NCBI RefSeq assembly: GCF_016714285.1
Contig: NZ_JADJNN010000012.1
Span: 218,040-282,039 of the forward strand
Direction of reading: 5' to 3'
Length of the DNA: 64,000 bases
DNA from: Nannocystis sp.
GTDB taxonomy: Bacteria; Myxococcota_A; Polyangia; Nannocystales; Nannocystaceae
Shown: positions 1,865 to 53,271 of the stretch, piece after piece
Layout: each line of letters starts with the position of its first letter
Numbering within the stretch: position 1 is the stretch's first letter
Translations under genes and position numbers: made by a program
Notes under the pieces: generated by a model
The model's input: the letters and a program-made list of their open reading frames with translations, nothing else
Database searches by the model: none
Told to the model about the DNA's origin: nothing

Positions 1865-3639
1865 ATGATCACCGCAGGTCAAGTGAGCAAATATCGTTTG
1901 TTCTTCCGTCGCCGCACCGCGGCCCTTTGCTTGCCCCTCGGCCTGCTCCTCGGGTCCACGCTCGCGAGCGGCTGCCAGAAGGTCTGCAACGACGACGGCT
2001 TCGCCTGGCAGCAAGATCCGAGCTGTCTCGCGGGGCTGACGGCCACCGAGACCGCGAGCGAGACCGACACCGACGATCCCAGCGCGACCGACAGCGCGAC
2101 CGACTCGCCGACCAGCTCGGGCGGCGGCGGGCAGTGGTGTGTCGACGCCGACGGCGACATGTACGGCGATCCCGATCAATGCACCGACGTGCCCCCGGGC
2201 GGCACGCCGCCGGACGGCACGGTCAACAACGACGACGATTGCGACGACGGCAGCGACACCACGTATCCGGGGGCCGCGCCGCTCGACAGTCCGACCGCCT
2301 GCATGGCCGACGTCGACGGTGACGACTACGGCGACGTCGATCCGCGCCCGGGCAGGGCGGCGGCGGCGGTGCGGTGCCGGGCAGCGACTGCGACGACACC
2401 AGCGCCAACACCTTCCCCGGCGCCGCGCCCAAGGACGACCCTGACGCCTGCATGAAGGACGAGGACGGCGACGACTGGGGCGACAAGGATCCCCCCGGTG
2501 GCGGCGGCCCCAACGAGCCCCAGCCGGGCACCGACTGCGACGATACCAACCCCAACGCCTTCGCCATGTGCGGCGCCTGCAACGACGTCGACGGCGACGG
2601 CTGGCTGGTCGACTGCGACTCCTATCCGCCGGGTATGCCCGGCCCCGACTGCGACGACAGCGATCCGAACACCTTCCCGGGCGCCGCGCCGAACGACGAC
2701 CCGAAGGCGTGCATGACCGACAAGGACGGCGACGACTGGGGCGACGACATGCCCACCAGCCCCGACGCCGTGCCCGGCACCGACTGCGACGATGACGACG
2801 AGAACACCTCGCCCGGAGCTGCGCCGAAGGACGACCCGGACGCGTGCATGACCGACAAGGACGGCGACGATCGCGGCGACGCCAAGCCGCCGGGCGGCAA
2901 GCCTGGCGTCGTCGCCGGCAGCGATTGCTACGACGATAACCCTTCGCTCAACCCCGACAACAATGTCCTGCTGACCGCCGAGATCACCAGCGGCAAGCTG
3001 CTCGAGGTCGACATCGCCACCGGCGACATGACCGAATACGCCGCGGTCGACGTGAAGGACTTTAACCCGTGGATCCCCACCAGTATCGCCGTCAGCCCGC
3101 TCGACGGGACGGTCTACGCCGCGCTCGCGTTCCGCGATCGCCTGGTGACGATGAACTACTGCGGCGCGGGCGTACCGACGGCGCTGCCGATGGCCCACAA
3201 GAAGAACATCTGCGGCATCGGCTTCGACCGCGCGGGCGTCCTCTACGGCATCGACGGCCAGGTCGACCAGTTCCTCACCTTCAACGCCGACGGCTCGCTC
3301 AAGCCGACCTTGCCGCTCACCTTCGAGGGCAAGCTGCTGAACGTCGCTGACTGCGGCATGGCCTTTGATTGCCACGAGGACCGCCTGCTCGTCTCCGACT
3401 CCGGCTCCGGCGGTATCTACGTGGTCAACCCGGCCGATGGCTCCACCACCCGCGTCGCCGACCTCCCGAACGAGGTGTTCGGCAGCGGCCTCGAGTACGA
3501 TCCCACCACCAAGCTCGCGCTCTCGTGCGACCAGAACTCGCTGCTGTCGATCGCTATCGACGGCAGCAACGACTTCACCCAGCTCCCCGACCTCGCCGCC
3601 CCGGCCGACGACCTCGGCTTCGGCCCGAAGTGCAACTAG
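1865..3639 (+). CDS. lipoprotein with about 7 MopE-like putative metal-binding repeats (DCDDxxxNxFPGAAPxDDPxACMxDxDGDDWGD) and a C-terminal beta-propeller-like domain; apparent frameshift near 2350
   Basis: Lipobox LASGC follows the signal peptide. The repeat consensus recurs about every 33 aa. Reading switches from frame 2 (1829..2455) to frame 1 (2374..3639) inside a GGC/GCG run at about 2351-2370, with repeat units on both sides, so this is one gene. Confidence 0.6.
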
Positions 3640-14592: not shown

Positions 14593-16212
14593 ATGGCGAC
14601 CGCGGGAGCCAAGTCACGCCCACGGAATTGGGCCGCGCGGGCCGTGGGGACGCTGTGCTTGCTGCACCTGCCGCAGCTGCTGTCATTGGGCTGTACGCCC
14701 TCGGTCGCGGCGCGGGCGGTGTGGATCGGCAGTGCGCACGACGTCGACGGCGGTCGCACGCTGTTCGCGTACTCGGCCGGATCGTTCACCAGCAGCCACA
14801 TCGCTCCGCTCGCGGGCGAGGCCGACGCCGAGGTCGGCGAGTTGCCGCTGCTCCTCGAGCTCGAGCCGCGTGGCCGCGGTGTGCTCGTGCGGGCGGTCGA
14901 CAGCGGGTGGTTGCACGAGATCGGGACCGGCTCGACGCTGCGCGCGGGCTACGTCGACCTGGCGCATGAGCGGGTGCTGCCGCTGGCGCTGCCGTCGGGG
15001 CGCGACGCGGCCAGCTTCCTCGCCGCGGGCGACGGGCTGTGGTGGTTCGAGGACTGCCCGCGGGCGCTGGCCGTGCTGCCGCTGGCGCCGGAGCTGGTGC
15101 TCGCGCGCGAGGGCGAGGCCGGCACGGTGGCGCCGCTGCGGCACCTGCTGGACGCGAGCGCGGGCAAGCCGGCGGCGCGCGCGTGCAACCCCGGGGCGAT
15201 CGACCACGCGGTGGTCTCGGCCGCCGATGCGCCGCGCCTGTTCCTGATCGCGGCGCGCGGGACGAGCCCCGACCTGCGGGCCGAGCAGGAGGCGACGATC
15301 GAGCTGTGGCAGGTGCCACGCGGCGACGGTGCGGCCCAGCTGCAGCGCGTCGTGCAGGGCAGCTTGCCGGCGGGGCATGTGCCGGTGCGCCTGCCGGGCC
15401 TGCAGTGCAGTGGGGGTCCGGCGTGTCCGATCGCGGCGGTCGACCCCGACGGGATGGGGCTGACCTTGTCGGTGTACGGCGCGGGCTGCCGGCTGCTGCG
15501 CTTCGACGCGGCCAGCGGCGCGGCCAGCTGCGCGGTCGCTGACGACGCGCCGGCCGAGCTCGCGGCGGCGCGGATGGTCGCGGCGATCTCGAGCGATCAC
15601 TACGTGTTTCACGACGGGCTCACGCTGCTGCTCCACGACTGGCGCACGGGCAAACGGGTGCTCCGCACGTTGCCGGGCGACCCGGACGACGCCTTCGTGC
15701 GCGTCACCCAGGACGGGCGCGCCGTGGTGCTCGGCTCGAGCCGGGGGCCAGTGCTGCGGGGCGACGCGCAGGGCCTCGACATCCTGAACCTCGAGCAGGG
15801 CCTGTGTCCGAACCCGCAGCCGCCGGTGCTGAGCCCGTCGGGGGCCTTCGTCGCGTGGACCTGTACGATCAGCCCGCCGGAGGACGGGACGCTGGTCAAC
15901 GAGGACGAGCCCAGCGCGGACGCGCTGTCGCTGGGCGACGTGATCCGGGTGTCGGGCGCGGGGCTCGAGCGCTACCAGGGCGTGCCGATGTGGGCCCTGG
16001 CGATCGACGACAGCGGCGACCTGCTGATCCACAGCCGCAAGAACCCGCGCCTCGATCACGAGACCCTGCTGCCGCCCGATCCGCCGCGCAACCTCTACGT
16101 GCTGGCCCGCGACGGCGAGCTGGCCCGGATCGACGGCCTCGAGCCCGACCCGGAGCAGAGCGTCGGCCTGGCCCAGGACAGCTACCAGTGGATCGCCGCG
16201 CAGGCGCTGTGA
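14593..16212 (+). CDS. hypothetical lipoprotein
   Basis: Signal peptide with lipobox LLSLGC. 540-aa ORF of balanced composition. The overlapping minus ORF is Arg-rich antisense. Confidence 0.5.
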   Translation: MATAGAKSRPRNWAARAVGTLCLLHLPQLLSLGCTPSVAARAVWIGSAHDVDGGRTLFAYSAGSFTSSHIAPLAGEADAEVGELPLLLELEPRGRGVLVRAVDSGWLHEIGTGSTLRAGYVDLAHERVLPLALPSGRDAASFLAAGDGLWWFEDCPRALAVLPLAPELVLAREGEAGTVAPLRHLLDASAGKPAARACNPGAIDHAVVSAADAPRLFLIAARGTSPDLRAEQEATIELWQVPRGDGAAQLQRVVQGSLPAGHVPVRLPGLQCSGGPACPIAAVDPDGMGLTLSVYGAGCRLLRFDAASGAASCAVADDAPAELAAARMVAAISSDHYVFHDGLTLLLHDWRTGKRVLRTLPGDPDDAFVRVTQDGRAVVLGSSRGPVLRGDAQGLDILNLEQGLCPNPQPPVLSPSGAFVAWTCTISPPEDGTLVNEDEPSADALSLGDVIRVSGAGLERYQGVPMWALAIDDSGDLLIHSRKNPRLDHETLLPPDPPRNLYVLARDGELARIDGLEPDPEQSVGLAQDSYQWIAAQAL

Positions 16213-44456: not shown

Positions 44457-46358
44457 TCAGGGCTTGAAGACGTGGGTGTAGCGGGCCACCTGCTCGGAGG
44501 CGGGGAAGCGCAGGCGAGAGACCAGCGGGGCGAGGCAGCGGAGCAGGGCCGCGTCGCCCTGGTGCTCGCCGAGGTCCATGGCGACGCCGTTGTGGCGCGG
44601 GCCGCCGACCTGCAAGGAGAGCTCCAGGCGGGCGAGCGGGGGAGCATGGCTGCGCATACACCGATGCACGCCGGGGGTGACGGTGTCGATGAGGCGGTGG
44701 AAGGTGGCCTCGGGCGGGGCGCCAGGGGTTCGCGGTGAGGCGAGCTCGGGCTCGGCGGCAGGCGGGCGCTTGCGGGGCCTCGGGGGCTGCGCTGCGTGGT
44801 CGTCGTTCGTGGGGGCGCGGCCGCTGAGCTGTGGACCGGACGCCTCGATCGCGAGTACGGGCGGGACCCCGGGGCCGGGCGCCTCGATCGCTGGTAGTGG
44901 GTGGGGTGCCGCGGCGGGGATCGGGATCGTGGGGCCGGGGTCCACGGTGGTGGGGATCGGGTCAGCGAGGGCCGTGGCGGCGCCTGTGGGGGCGCTAGCG
45001 AGGGCTGCCGCGCTGGCGTCGAACCAGGTGTCGCGGGGGCCGCCTGGGATCGTCGCGGCGAGCAGGATGCCGGCGAGGGCGAGGACCAGGCCGAGCAGGC
45101 CGCTGCGTAGGTTGGGACCGCGGCCGAAGGCGGGCACCAGGATCATCGTGGTCGAGGTGGAGGCGCCAGCTCCGAGGCCAGCTCCTGGGCCAGCGCCTGG
45201 GCCAGCGCCGAGGTGGTGGGCCGCGCGGGCGGGCAGCATGCCGAGGCGCCACAGGCCCGAGGGTTCGGCTTCGGCCTCGTGGATGGCGATCGTCTCGGCC
45301 TCGGCGTCGGCGGCGGCGCCACGGATCGCCTGCGCCATCGCGTGGGCGCTGGGGTAGCGATCGGCGCGGTCCTTGGCCAGGGCGCGCAGGACCACGGCCT
45401 CGAGGGTGGCGGGGATCTCCGAGCCGGCGGCGCGGCGCAGGGGCGCCGGCGGGGTCTCGATGTGCATCCGCATGATCGCGGCCGGGTTGTCGCCGGTGAA
45501 CGGCAAGCGGCCGGTCAGCAGCATGTACATCATCACGCCGAGCGCGTAGATGTCGACGCGGTGGTCGCAGGTGAAGCCCTGGATCTGCTCCGGGGCGAGG
45601 TACTCGGGGGCGCCGAGGCGGCCGGGCGGCGTCGGCCGACCGGTGCTGGGCATCAGCCGCGCGAGGCCGAGGTCGAGCACCTTGACGAAGGTGAAGGGCG
45701 GGCCCTCGTCGAGGTCGCGCTCGAGGGCACGATCCGGGCGCCGGTCGGGGTCGTGGCCGTCGCGGCGGACCAGGAAGCAGTTGCCAGGCTTGATGTCGCG
45801 ATGGATGACGCCGCGGTCGTGCGCGGCCTGCAGCGCGGCGCAGACCTGGACGGCGATGGTGACGACGCGGCGCCACGGGAGCGGGCCGGGGCGGGCCTCG
45901 AGCAGGGCGTCGAGGCTCTCACCCTCGAGGAACTCCATCACCGAGTAGAGCAGGCCGTCGTCGCTCTGGCCGAGGTCGGTGACGGCGACGCTGTGCTCGT
46001 GGCGGAGCCGGGCGCCGAGCAGGGCCTCCTGGTGGAAGCGGCGGCGGAAGTCCTCGTCGCCGCAGTAGTCAGGGTGGAGCACCTTGACGGCGACGGCTGT
46101 CCCGAGGGTCATGTCGCGCGCCTCGTAGACGGTGCCCATGCTGCCGCCGCCGATCCGCCGGCGCAGGCTGTAGCGGGCCCCGAGCACGCGGCCCGAGAGA
46201 TCCGGCGCGCGCACGACCGGGAGCGGCAGCTCGGCGTCAGCCGAGGCCCGGGGTTGCTTGCTCGAGGTGAACCGGATCTCCACCAATCTCTCTGAGATTT
46301 CATGGATCGCGCAGGATGTCCACCGCTCTGATCCTGGGCTTCGATCAGGTGCTGTCAT
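44457..46358 (-). CDS. Ser/Thr protein kinase with one TM helix and a Pro-rich extracellular C-terminal region
   Basis: Kinase subdomains: G-loop LGARYSLRRRIGGGSMGTVYEA, VAVK, HRDIKPGN, DLGLA, APE. TM segment GLLGLVLALAGILLAATI. Confidence 0.85.
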   Translation of the reverse strand: MTAPDRSPGSERWTSCAIHEISERLVEIRFTSSKQPRASADAELPLPVVRAPDLSGRVLGARYSLRRRIGGGSMGTVYEARDMTLGTAVAVKVLHPDYCGDEDFRRRFHQEALLGARLRHEHSVAVTDLGQSDDGLLYSVMEFLEGESLDALLEARPGPLPWRRVVTIAVQVCAALQAAHDRGVIHRDIKPGNCFLVRRDGHDPDRRPDRALERDLDEGPPFTFVKVLDLGLARLMPSTGRPTPPGRLGAPEYLAPEQIQGFTCDHRVDIYALGVMMYMLLTGRLPFTGDNPAAIMRMHIETPPAPLRRAAGSEIPATLEAVVLRALAKDRADRYPSAHAMAQAIRGAAADAEAETIAIHEAEAEPSGLWRLGMLPARAAHHLGAGPGAGPGAGLGAGASTSTTMILVPAFGRGPNLRSGLLGLVLALAGILLAATIPGGPRDTWFDASAAALASAPTGAATALADPIPTTVDPGPTIPIPAAAPHPLPAIEAPGPGVPPVLAIEASGPQLSGRAPTNDDHAAQPPRPRKRPPAAEPELASPRTPGAPPEATFHRLIDTVTPGVHRCMRSHAPPLARLELSLQVGGPRHNGVAMDLGEHQGDAALLRCLAPLVSRLRFPASEQVARYTHVFKP

Positions 46359-46844: not shown

Positions 46845-46929
46845 ACATTCAAACGTGCGAAGCGTTGCCCGCGGAGGATCTGCGGCGGGTACCGGTTCCA
46901 GGGGTCGGGTCCGCGGCGGCCGTGGCCGT

Positions 46930-48323: not shown

Positions 48324-49398
48324 TCAGTCGAGCAGGCGGATGCCGAACAGGCGGTGCTGCTGCTGGCGGAAGCGGGCCTCGTGGTAGAGGCCGAGGTAGT
48401 TGATCTCGGTCTCCCACGGGGGGCCGGCGCGCTGGAGGTGCTCGAGGCCGGCGATCACGTCCTCGAACTTGTGGATGAAGCGCCAGGCGGGGCGGTCGAC
48501 GCTGGCCTCGAGGGCGTCGAGGGCGGCGGTCAGCTTGCGGATCGCGGGCGGCTGGACGAAGCCGCGGCGCATGAGGTCCTGCACCGAGTTGGCGACGCGC
48601 TCGGGGGTGTAGCCGGCGGCGGCCATGGCGGTGAGGACGCGGACCAGGCCGGCGCCGGAGAGGAGGCCGGCGTCGAACAGGAGGACGGCGACCTGGAAGT
48701 AGTTGTAGTTGGCGACGACGCGGGCGCCGTAGGGGGCGAAGCGCTCGAGCGGGGAGCGGCGGTCGAGGTGGATGAAGATCCGGCGGACGACGTCGCCGGC
48801 GCCGGCGAGGCGGCCGTGCATACGTCATGATCTCGTCGACGTCGTGGCGGTAGACCTTGCAGGCGGTGAGGATCGCGGCCATGCGCTCGGCGGAGATCCG
48901 GCCGGCGAGGATGTCGGCGTAGAGGCTGTAGACGAAGGCGTCCTGCTCGGCGTCGTCGCCGAACAGGTACTCGTCCTGGGTCTCGTCCCCCAGGTGGCTG
49001 TGCAGGAGGGCCTTGAGCTTGTAGCCGACCTGGCCGCGCAGGGCCCGGAAGCGGCCGCGCAGGAGGTTCTCGAGGTTCGGCTTGAGGATGAAGACGTCGG
49101 GCTCGACGCCGTCGAGGCTGAGCTTGCGGGCGAGCACCTTGCGCATCTGCTGGGGCGAGCCGCTGATGAAGGTGACGTGGCGGTTGCTGCGGTCGGCGGG
49201 GTCGAGGAGGGCCTGCAGGAGGGCCTGGGCGCCGGCGATCGTGGCCTTGTCCTCGGGCTTCTGCCGGAAGGTCTTGATCAGGTCCTTGAGGGTGTCGAAG
49301 TTGGTCGCGAGGTAGGTCTTGTCGAGGTCCCAGCGCAGGTGGACGAGGCGGCGCGGGGGCCCGGCTCCGGGGGGGGTGGGCGGAGGCGCGTCGGTCAT
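48324..49398 (-). CDS. HAD-like DUF2183/App1-like phosphatase-family protein; frameshift near 48822
   Basis: N-terminal part (49398 down to about 48822 in the 738-aa ORF frame) has DxDxT (HLRWDLDKTYL) and ...FISGSPQQM.... The C-terminal part continues in the frame of ORF 48324..48821; the junction is ...atcatgacgt|atgcacggc.... The ATG overlaps the plsX stop (ATGA). Confidence 0.5.
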
Positions 49399-50642: not shown

Positions 50643-51482
50643 CTACAGGCGGGCGCAGCGGAGCTCGACCAGCCAGGCCTCGCAGTCGGCCTCGTTGGCG
50701 GCCTCCTCGGGCAATGGGCTGCGGGCGAGGGCGTCGCTGAGTTCGGCCTCGAGCGCGGGCCAGGCGGCCCGGTGGCGGGCGTCGACCTCGGGGCTGACGG
50801 CGCCCTTCTCGGCGCCCTCGGCCTTGATCTTGATCAGCTCGAGGGCGTCCGGATAACCGAGCTGCGGGGCGAGGATCCGGAGGTCGGCGATGAGCTCCCC
50901 GGTGCGCAGCAGGTGGATGCCGGTGAGGGCGACGCGGTAGGCGTAAAGCAGGGTCTTGGCCCGCGGTCGCTCGGCCTTCTCGTGCTCGCGGCACATGCCC
51001 TTGAAGAAGCCCTGGTAGTGGCGAGCGCAGCGGCGCGAGACGCTGGCGCGGGCGAGGGCTTGCAGCTGCAAGAGCTCGGGGCCGGGGTAGAGCTGGAACT
51101 TGGAGAGCAGGCGCTCGAGCAGGTTGCCGTTGCCGTTGACGAGCAGCTGGAGGCCCTTGCCGAGCTCGGTGAGGGTGAGGTCGCACTCGGTGGCCTCGAA
51201 GTCGACGAGGCGGTCGAAGGTCTCGGGCGGGCGGTGGAGGCCGAGCAGCTTGCGGGTGGGGGCGAGGAACAGGCCCTTGAGGTCGAGGTCGCTGTCGGCC
51301 GAGGAGAAGCCGTAGTCGTGGCTGCCGGTGACGCCGCACTGGATCGCCAGGCCGGGCACGGGGCACTGGGCGATGAAGCGGCGGCCGAGCTCGAGGTCGG
51401 GGAGGGCGTTGGGCGGGAGGTCGATGGCGGCGGCATGGCGGGGTGCCCGCGGGGGGGGGGGGGGGGGGGGGGGCCCGGTCAT
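50643..51482 (-). CDS. Pol-beta-superfamily nucleotidyltransferase (PF10127/RlaP-like), paralogue 2, with an N-terminal Pro8 tract
   Basis: MTGPPPPPPPPRAP...GVTGSHDYGFSSADSDLDLKGLF (GS...D.D NTase motif). Its ATG overlaps the stop of paralogue 1 (ATGA). Confidence 0.7.
   Translation of the reverse strand: MTGPPPPPPPPRAPRHAAAIDLPPNALPDLELGRRFIAQCPVPGLAIQCGVTGSHDYGFSSADSDLDLKGLFLAPTRKLLGLHRPPETFDRLVDFEATECDLTLTELGKGLQLLVNGNGNLLERLLSKFQLYPGPELLQLQALARASVSRRCARHYQGFFKGMCREHEKAERPRAKTLLYAYRVALTGIHLLRTGELIADLRILAPQLGYPDALELIKIKAEGAEKGAVSPEVDARHRAAWPALEAELSDALARSPLPEEAANEADCEAWLVELRCARL
51451..51473. repeat. 23-nt poly(G) homopolymer (poly-C on the coding strand = Pro8)
   Basis: cgc-G23-cccggtcat, seen directly. 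Confidence 0.9.
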
Positions 51483-52408
51483 GGCGAGGCCTTCAGGACG
51501 TCGGCGACGAGCTCGGCGCACAGGCGGTCGAGGCCGGCGTCGTCGGGGGCGGCGGGCAGGGGCGAGGTCGCGGCGGCGGCGTGGACCTGCTGGCCGAGGG
51601 CCTCGGCGCGGGCCATGAGCTCGTCGTAGCTGAGGGCGCCGGACTTGATGCCGAGCAGGTCGTCGCGGTCGTCGCGGCGGACCAGGACGCGGCCGGTGCT
51701 GACGATCTCGAGGCCCATGCGCAGCAGACGGATGAGGTGGAGGGCGTGCTTGGTGTCGTAGCCGAAGCGGGCCTCGAGCTCGCTGCGCCGCGGGTTGCGG
51801 GTCTTTTGCCACGAGAGGTAGGAGTCCCACTCCTTGCGGGCGCCGCGGTAGCGACGCTCGCGTTCGAGGATGTCGAGGAAGTTGGTGCTGAGGTCGACCA
51901 GCTCGAGGCGCTGGTCGGCGAGCATGGCCTCGACGGCGCCGAGCTGGTCGCGCGAGATCTGGGCGCGGTCGGGGAGGCCGAAGTCGGCGCGCTGGGGCTC
52001 CTTCTGCGGCGGGTTCATGACCCACTTGCGGTGGGTCTTGATCCGGCCGAGCTGCGACATGGCGTAGCCGGAGAAGCTGTCCTTGACGCGCAGCGAGAGG
52101 AACTGCTCGCGCGCGGCGAGCAGGCGCTCACCGGCGGGGGTCATGTGCATGTGGCACTCGCTCGGGGTCCACAGCAGCTCGAGCACGGTCGGGTTGGCGG
52201 CGGCGGCGAGGCGGAAGTACTTGCGGATCTCGTAGCGGACGTGATCGCCGGTGAGCTCGATCTGCTCCGGGCCGCCGAGGTAGCCGTGGTACCAGCCGGC
52301 GGGGCCGACGAGCACGCCCTTGAGGTCGACGTCGGAGGCGGGGGTGGCGAGGCCGTAGGCTTGCGAGCCGTGCACGGTCTCGTAGATGAGGGTGCCGGGG
52401 GTCTCCAT
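51479..52408 (-). CDS. Pol-beta-superfamily nucleotidyltransferase (PF10127/RlaP-like), paralogue 1
   Basis: METPGTLIYETVHGSQAYGLATPASDVDLKGVLV...; same family as the downstream gene. Confidence 0.7.
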   Translation of the reverse strand: METPGTLIYETVHGSQAYGLATPASDVDLKGVLVGPAGWYHGYLGGPEQIELTGDHVRYEIRKYFRLAAAANPTVLELLWTPSECHMHMTPAGERLLAAREQFLSLRVKDSFSGYAMSQLGRIKTHRKWVMNPPQKEPQRADFGLPDRAQISRDQLGAVEAMLADQRLELVDLSTNFLDILERERRYRGARKEWDSYLSWQKTRNPRRSELEARFGYDTKHALHLIRLLRMGLEIVSTGRVLVRRDDRDDLLGIKSGALSYDELMARAEALGQQVHAAAATSPLPAAPDDAGLDRLCAELVADVLKASP

Positions 52409-52424
52409 GACGCCGGGGACGGTA

Positions 52425-53242
52425 TCACGGGGCGCGGGGCGGGGGCGGGCCGGCGAGGGGGAGGTCTTGCAGCTCGGCGCGGACGGCTTGCATGAAGGCG
52501 GGGCCGGGGTCGCCCTTGCGGGTGCGGTAGTCGGGCTCGCGCTCCTGGAAGTAGGGGTGGGCCTCGAAGGCGAGGTACTCGTGGTGGCCGATGAGGTGGG
52601 TGATGCCGGGGAAGCGGGCGACGAGGTGGCGGACGAGGGCGACGTTGGCGGCGCGCTGGGCCGCGGTGAGCGGGAAGCGGCCGTTGTCGCCGACGTTCTC
52701 GACGCCGATCGCGAGGTGGTTCAGGCCGACGACGTGGCGGGCCATCCAGGTCTCGGGCATGAGGCGGACGATGGTGCCGTCGCGGTCGACCAGGAAGTGG
52801 GCGGAGACGTTGAGGTCGCCGGCTTTGGCGATGATCGTGCGGCCGCGCTCGACGCTGGGGCGATCGAAGTAGCGCCAGGTGCCGTCGAGCGAGCCGCCGC
52901 CGGTGAAGTGCAGGACGATTATCTTCGGGTCGATCGTGATGTCGCTGGCGGCCGGGTCCTGGTGGCGCTTGCGGTAGGTGATCGTCTTCTCGCGGCGGGC
53001 GGCGTCGTAGGTGATCGGGCGGTCGAGGATCGCTAGCTCGGGGATCGCGGGCGGTGGTTCAGGGGCGGGTGGCGTGGCGATCGCAGGTGGCGCGTCGGGG
53101 GCGGGGTGGGCCGGCGGGCGGCGGGTCGAGCGCGGGCGGCGGGCGGGGGCGAGCGGCGGGGGATGGCGGCGGGCGGCGGGGCGCAGGCGATCAGGAGGCT
53201 GGCCGCGAGGACAGGGCCGGAGAGACAGGGTCTTTGGGACAT
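52425..53242 (-). CDS. N-acetylmuramoyl-L-alanine amidase (Amidase_2/PGRP-like) lipoprotein; frameshift in the Pro/Ala-rich linker (about 53100-53200)
   Basis: ATG 53242 gives MSQRPCLSGPVLAASLLIAC (lipobox), then the frame degrades. The amidase frame reads ...PPAPEPPPAIPELAILDRPITY...VLHFTGGGSLDGTWRYF...NVSAHFLVDRDGTIVRLMPETW...HLIGHHEY...KGDPGP without a start codon of its own. Confidence 0.6.
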
Positions 53243-53271
53243 GTACGTGGGGCCAGGCGAGCGCACGGGGC

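Follow-up and report, generated by a model that had tools for sequence, protein, structure and literature searches.

The run of 23 consecutive guanines at the junction of the RlaP1 and RlaP2 genes in the 64-kb window (that is, the whole stretch of Nannocystis sp. DNA which we analysed), together with the 45-nt insertion that carries it, most likely arose as a local error of consensus calling or assembly in a metagenome built from noisy long reads. We conclude that G23 is most likely not a real feature and that the phase variation proposed for it in an earlier note on this DNA is unsupported. The descriptive elements of that note are all correct for the sequence as given, and the doubt is whether the assembly mirrors the real genome. 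The caveat in the note that the tract could be an assembly artefact has become the best-supported explanation, given that the tract is unique to this assembly, that near-identical contigs are without the insertion, and that junk sequence is found in a sister MAG. The closest contigs read ...GGCCTCGCCATGACCGCCGCCATCGAC... here, which is probably the real junction, and judging from this sequence the true RlaP2 is likely to be a protein of ~264 aa which starts MTAAIDLPPN and is translationally coupled to RlaP1 via ATGA.

The homopolymer was read directly from the window as 23 consecutive G at positions 51451–51473 of the plus strand (C23 on the coding minus strand). It is the longest run in the window and the only one above 8 nt, with the next longest being a single G8 followed by four G7 runs. 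The window has a G+C content of 71.3%, and runs of at least 23 nt are expected only 3e-5 times under an iid model and 5e-7 times under a first-order Markov model; the tract is as extreme for GC-rich DNA as had been claimed. Translation of the minus strand, ATG ACC GGG (CCC)x7 CCG CGG, gives M T G P8 R A P R H A A A I D L and confirms the in-frame Pro8, encoded by C23, at codons 4–11 of the downstream gene, RlaP2, whose assembled start is MTGPPPPPPPPR (with the longer extent MTGPPPPPPPPRAPRHAAAIDLPPN...). Alignments with the near-identical contigs L021 and L022 and direct reading place the tract within a 45-nt insertion at 51432–51476 (minus strand). The coding strand of this insertion is GGG-C23-GCGGGCACCCCGCCATGCC, laid out as GGG-C23-GCGGGCACC and then CCCCGCCATG-CC. 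This last part, at the 3' end of the insertion (51432–51443, minus strand), is a degenerate second copy of the genuine junction 13-mer CCTCGCCATGACC (51477–51489, minus strand), which contains the RlaP2 ATG and the RlaP1 TGA and is the same in L020, L021, L022, L023 and L024. The A of ATGACC is absent from the second copy (position 51433), and the second ATG (51436–51434) leads into a wrong-frame ORF of 200 aa (50834–51436). A downstream in-frame start which would make the tract non-coding was also considered and rejected, as the homologues all start at the coupled ATG (M-T/L/S), which makes the start as annotated that of the whole family.

RlaP2 as assembled is a protein of 279 aa (50643–51482, minus strand) identical to MBK7827829.1 / WP_293273180.1, and RlaP1 is a protein of 309 aa (51479–52408, minus strand) identical to MBK7827830.1. 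The earlier identification of two nucleotidyltransferase paralogues holds, with both matching Pfam PF10127 (RlaP) above the gathering threshold of 23 bits (E 8e-28 and 98.2 bits for RlaP2, and E 5e-22 and 79.4 bits for RlaP1, where the match is in the N-terminal half) and sharing ~27% identity over the NTase domain. NCBIfam and PADLOC searches returned zero matches for either protein. The RlaP2 ATG (51482–51480) overlaps the RlaP1 TGA (51481–51479) as ATGA on the minus strand, as had also been described, and this 4-nt overlap is likewise kept in relatives, where the gene order TrkH, metallophosphoesterase, amidase_2, RlaP1, RlaP2, PlsX and APP1_cat is conserved across the Nannocystaceae.

We note some variation at this junction outside the immediate group to which the window belongs. 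In cultured Nannocystis spp. (L011–L015, at ~2910–3000) RlaP1 and RlaP2 do not overlap and are separated by a spacer of ~50–80 nt, which holds a GGAGG Shine-Dalgarno sequence and a conserved palindrome (GGACATGc...ACATGTCC) that may be an operator or form an RNA hairpin. In L016 (2986–3012) RlaP2 begins MTTDLAMDLPPN; its linker, downstream of a new ATGA overlap, has CCTCGCCATGGACC, which nearly repeats the 13-mer found at the junction in the window group, and this locus is a natural precedent for junction remodelling in this family. The 544-aa product P0121, from an 85-kb JGI contig, is a frameshifted RlaP1 C-terminus fused to a full-length RlaP2, which is another sign of common frameshifts around the RlaP pair in public assemblies.

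A Pro tract was found in none of ~155 RlaP2 homologues, in a set made up of the best 120 homologues and 36 additional proteins from the four nearest 90% clusters, and its sole carrier, P0128, is the window itself. The N-termini of the homologues consist of M-(T/L/S), then a variable linker of 0–15 residues, and then DLPPNALPDLELGRRF. No orthologous or shorter G/C tract was present among these ~155 proteins and the 26 loci compared, and homopolymers of at least 10 nt were absent from 24 other Nannocystis and Myxococcota loci (~130 kb in total). These 24 loci include complete or near-complete N. exedens, N. pusilla, N. punicea and N. radixulma genomes as well as many short metagenome contigs, which we take to be short-read assemblies. 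Exact-product look-ups with the RlaP1, RlaP2 and PlsX proteins of the window yielded no contig of the same strain, and a scan of the genome contigs of representatives returned relatives at no more than 90% identity, the source species not being among the representatives. A metagenome scan produced one match to the 22-nt 3' part of the insertion (L019), which was rejected as unrelated and due to chance, and a Logan contig which ends 5 nt past the junction (L026) carries an L023-type allele (ATGACCCCC...) and was uninformative on the tract.

Three sets of contigs are far closer to the window than these relatives. The SNP divergence from the window is 0.62% for L021/L028 (GCA_964267895.1; RlaP1 to PlsX) and also 0.62% for L022 (the Logan assembly of SRR11674041), while L020 shows ~0.6% divergence when insertion columns are set aside; L020, L021 and L022 are mutually 0.26–0.31% divergent, and together with the window they are one species-level population. 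Both L021 and L022 read the plain junction CCTCGCCATGACCGCCGCC (longer context ...AAGGCCTCGCCATGACCGCCGCCATCGACC...), which encodes MTAAIDLPPN, without the insertion. The tract is thus absent from independent near-identical assemblies, of which L022, a Logan assembly, is presumably a short-read one. With the insertion left aside, the window differs from L022 by a single 1-nt gap in 2.6 kb. A comparison of tract length in related strains had been suggested in the earlier note as a check, and it went against the tract, for the closest contigs at 0.6% divergence are without any tract and L020 has an unrelated filler in its place.

Apart from that of the window itself, the nearest genome record is JADKFZ010000003.1 (GCA_016717175.1; loci L020 and L027), and this sister MAG also has an insertion at the RlaP1/RlaP2 junction, of 50 nt (L020:3957–4006), at exactly the same nucleotide as the 45-nt insertion of the window. 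In it a unique 37-nt filler, GAATCGGTCCGCACGCGACCCACCGCCGCCAGGGAAC, is joined to an exact duplicate of the junction 13-mer, and in consequence the L020 RlaP2 as assembled starts at the second ATG (ATGACC), 46 nt after the RlaP1 stop, leaving the genes uncoupled. Alignments between the window and L020 fillers, and between the fillers and their flanks, were no better than those of shuffled sequences (z -0.1 to 1.15), and on these values we rejected both an origin of the insertions by noisy tandem duplication of their flanks and homology between them. The L020 filler had no other copy among all of the sequences compared. Another candidate, a transposon footprint or CRISPR-like ectopic integration (as a 13-nt duplication with ~35 nt of filler might suggest), was set aside, as the insertions show neither terminal inverted repeats nor a common filler, and genes that would support such an event are absent.

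The same record contains a ~1.7-kb G/C-rich block 1 kb upstream of the junction insertion (L020:1290–2995, equivalent to L027:7290–8995), composed of 1009 C, 634 G, 62 T and 1 A, with 11 runs of at least 10 nt (C14–C27 among them) of which the longest is C27. The block replaces the amidase stop codon and a C-rich 30-nt stretch between the amidase and RlaP1 genes (...GCCGGCCCGCCCCCGCCCCGCGCCCCGTGATACC...), of which the window, L021 and L022 all have the same undamaged copy. We regard the block as almost certainly junk, and not genuine genome sequence, in a public RefSeq-linked MAG.

The MAG table in Singleton et al. 2021 lists JADJ-series WGS prefixes and also includes Nannocystaceae MAGs (PMC8012365). 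The pipeline of that study used PromethION R9 reads called by Guppy 2.2.3 flip-flop, assembly by CANU, and then polishing by Racon, by medaka (twice) and lastly by Racon again with HiSeq X reads (PMC8012365). From the accession series we infer this project, with one shared pipeline, as the source of both the window and L020, and the 1.7-kb block of L020, and perhaps its 50-nt insertion, would then be comparable junk from a common source. A two-colour Illumina poly-G artefact was rejected as an origin of the tract, as the HiSeq X used in the inferred source project is a four-colour instrument. In bacteria, homopolymers above 10 nt are seldom found, and nanopore consensus sequences still do not render them reliably (PMC9262707).

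Other uncorrected errors lie near the junction. A 1-nt insertion at ~48822 (48815–48830), seen in comparison with both L020 and L021, splits the APP1_cat gene (~48327–49398, minus strand) between frames -2 and -3, with tblastn recovering it in two pieces (aa 1–191 and 192–356); this frameshift is probably an uncorrected consensus error, or else marks a real pseudogene. The signal peptide of the amidase_2 lipoprotein, MSQRPCLSGPVLAASLLIACAPPPAA, is out of frame with the catalytic domain near 53160–53210 (minus strand), and across the 5' part of this gene (53090–53260) the window, L020 and L021 disagree by dozens of small indels in a stretch which encodes a Pro/Ala-rich linker and is itself C-rich. 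A further 1-nt indel (C4 vs C5) is found at 46904, and to these can be added the base missing at 51433. As a separate observation, a 12-nt tandem repeat, GCCAGCGCCGAG, is present in ~4 copies at 45165–45213 inside a gene of ~630 aa without a Pfam match, and L027 and L028 are longer by 48 nt (~four more copies) at this array, which is either a VNTR or a collapsed repeat. In the same gene, L028 (~15697–15704, opposite 45694–45743 of the window) is without ~42 nt which are kept in the window and L027.

We suggest that the artefact may have arisen when the consensus broke down at a C-rich site whose indels vary among co-occurring strains of Nannocystis. The consensus would have placed two alleles, or a noisy piece of read, one after another to give the arrangement of junction, filler and junction copy, and short-read Racon polishing would then have mended 1-nt indels and left the 45-nt block in place. 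The N-terminal linker alleles ATGACCGCCGCC, ATGACCCCCGCC and ATGACCGCGATCGAATTGCCTGGCCACCTT are all found in related contigs, which suggests that mixed or noisy reads could have been joined in this way, and the single 1-nt gap separating the window from L022 over 2.6 kb would fit with Racon repairing single-base indels and not multi-base blocks.

It should be noted that several observations count against an artefact. The 45-nt insertion preserves the reading frame, for which there would be a 1 in 3 chance if it were an error, and typical nanopore errors are indels of 1–2 nt and not blocks of 45 nt. Two independently assembled MAGs have an insertion at the same nucleotide, each with a terminal copy of the junction, and the 3' ends of the two insertions are alike (GGGnACCC-CGCCATG); the shared site and similar ends could indicate that the insertion is genuine and polymorphic, or that the site is a true hot spot. 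Precise loss of the insertion in L021 and L022 would be possible through the 13-nt repeats on either side, and the cultured Nannocystis species have a spacer between RlaP1 and RlaP2. On account of these points we keep a small but not negligible probability for a true insertion of 45–50 nt, duplicating the 13-nt junction in the Nannocystis population, whose interior was garbled to poly-C and whose second ATG lost its A. RlaP2 would then start at the second ATGACC, with the spacer uncoupling the genes and the tract being non-coding, though this arrangement too is unlikely. Such an insertion would account for the common site, the similar sizes (45 vs 50 nt) and the terminal junction copies in the window and L020, the L020 filler is a complex, non-repetitive sequence, a spacer of ~50–80 nt is natural in the cultured species, and the A missing at 51433 is a typical 1-nt deletion error. 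However, L020 diverges by only 0.3% from L021 and L022, which have no insertion, and by 0.6% from the window, so that two events are needed, the two fillers have no significant similarity, and the L020 insertion is itself suspect with gross junk only 1 kb away.

The phase-variation reading would have a real hypermutable poly-G tract acting as an SSR switch of RlaP2, the second subunit of the conserved pair, and newly arisen in an insertion hot spot of an uncultured Nannocystis, and this we regard as very improbable. Slipped-strand mispairing would alter the length of the C-run and only lengths equal to 23 modulo 3 would translate RlaP2 from the coupled ATG, a mechanism to which we likewise give only a slim chance of operating here. 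The frame-dependent on/off behaviour put forward in the earlier note stands in silico, where tract lengths of 20, 23 and 26 give full-length RlaP2 (ON) and lengths of 19, 21, 22, 24, 25 and 27 give wrong-frame products of 214–292 aa (OFF). The repeat length thus sets the reading frame, and for the assembled sequence a simple repeat (C23, codons 4–11) does lie inside the ORF. In addition, the tract is in the first 11 codons, where the N-terminal linker is tolerant of indels across the family, and the second ATG, at 51436, lies in another frame and would allow no bypass. The phase variation itself did not survive comparison, however, as relatives have no precursor and the two closest contigs have a plain ATGA. 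Length polymorphism, which would be looked for among close relatives at a contingency locus, was not seen in the contigs compared, and the three closest (0.6%) have no tract at all; neither was the tract or a shorter version of it found at the orthologous site in ~155 proteins and 26 loci. The tract would have had to originate de novo within 0.6% divergence, and in a conserved, syntenic and housekeeping-like pair of genes which has no PADLOC match and does not belong to the surface, restriction-modification or defence genes. All of the evidence for an artefact applies here as well, and the tract occurs only in the type of assembly to which the poly-C/G junk of JADKFZ01 also belongs.

A real but functionally neutral in-frame insertion of 45 nt encoding Pro8, having at most a polyproline-stalling side effect needing EF-P, seems to us extremely unlikely. 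In its favour, the length of the RlaP2 N-terminal linker varies among homologues (2 to 17 residues), and L016 provides a natural in-frame extension with a near-copy of the junction. Against this, the evidence opposing any real tract applies equally, and a run of C23 would be unstable and, without selection, would be expected to lose its frame.

If the tract were real, it would be one of few examples of phase variation by a homopolymer in a myxobacterium of high GC content, and would act on a conserved pair of nucleotidyltransferases. As an artefact, which is the reading we prefer, it has consequences for the public record instead. In the deposited protein MBK7827829.1 / WP_293273180.1, 15 residues near the N-terminus (GPPPPPPPPRAPRHA) are probably a spurious insertion, and in JADKFZ01 the 3' end of a gene is ruined by 1.7 kb of junk. 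In nanopore MAGs of the R9 era, G/C homopolymers as extreme as this ought to be taken as quality flags and not as biology.

Comparison with known systems helps to place these observations. The gene pair resembles other RlaP (PF10127) pairs of nucleotidyltransferases with a pol-beta fold in that it passes the gathering score and sits in a neighbourhood conserved in the Nannocystaceae, although RlaP1 of the window fits only the N-terminal half of the model, and this family assignment says nothing about the G23 tract. Homopolymeric-tract contingency loci, which undergo slipped-strand phase variation, are known from Neisseria, Haemophilus, Campylobacter and Helicobacter, and reversible frameshifts occur in mycobacterial glpK. 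The window shares with these loci a long G/C run in the first codons of an ORF, where length modulo 3 sets translation. It differs from them in showing no length polymorphism and no conservation in related strains or species, in affecting a gene outside the typical phase-variable classes, in the length of the run (typical contingency tracts are ~7–15 nt, and G23 is much longer), and in coming from a source sequence which is unreliable at exactly such features. A Pro8 near the start codon is a strong stalling motif, and polyproline stalling is relieved by EF-P; the assembled RlaP2 has such a run near its start, which is relevant only if the tract is real, whereas homologues have no Pro run there.

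The remaining comparison is with the consensus errors which affect homopolymers and low-complexity sequence in nanopore R9.4.1 MAGs. The usual error of this kind is a miscall of 1–2 nt in the length of a real homopolymer, and the window differs from this in having a whole 45-nt block with a duplicated flank at a place where relatives have no homopolymer. The likenesses are that the run is confined to MAGs of such a type and has frameshifts alongside it, that poly-C/G junk on the kilobase scale is found in the sister MAG JADKFZ01, and that large blocks survive short-read polishing.
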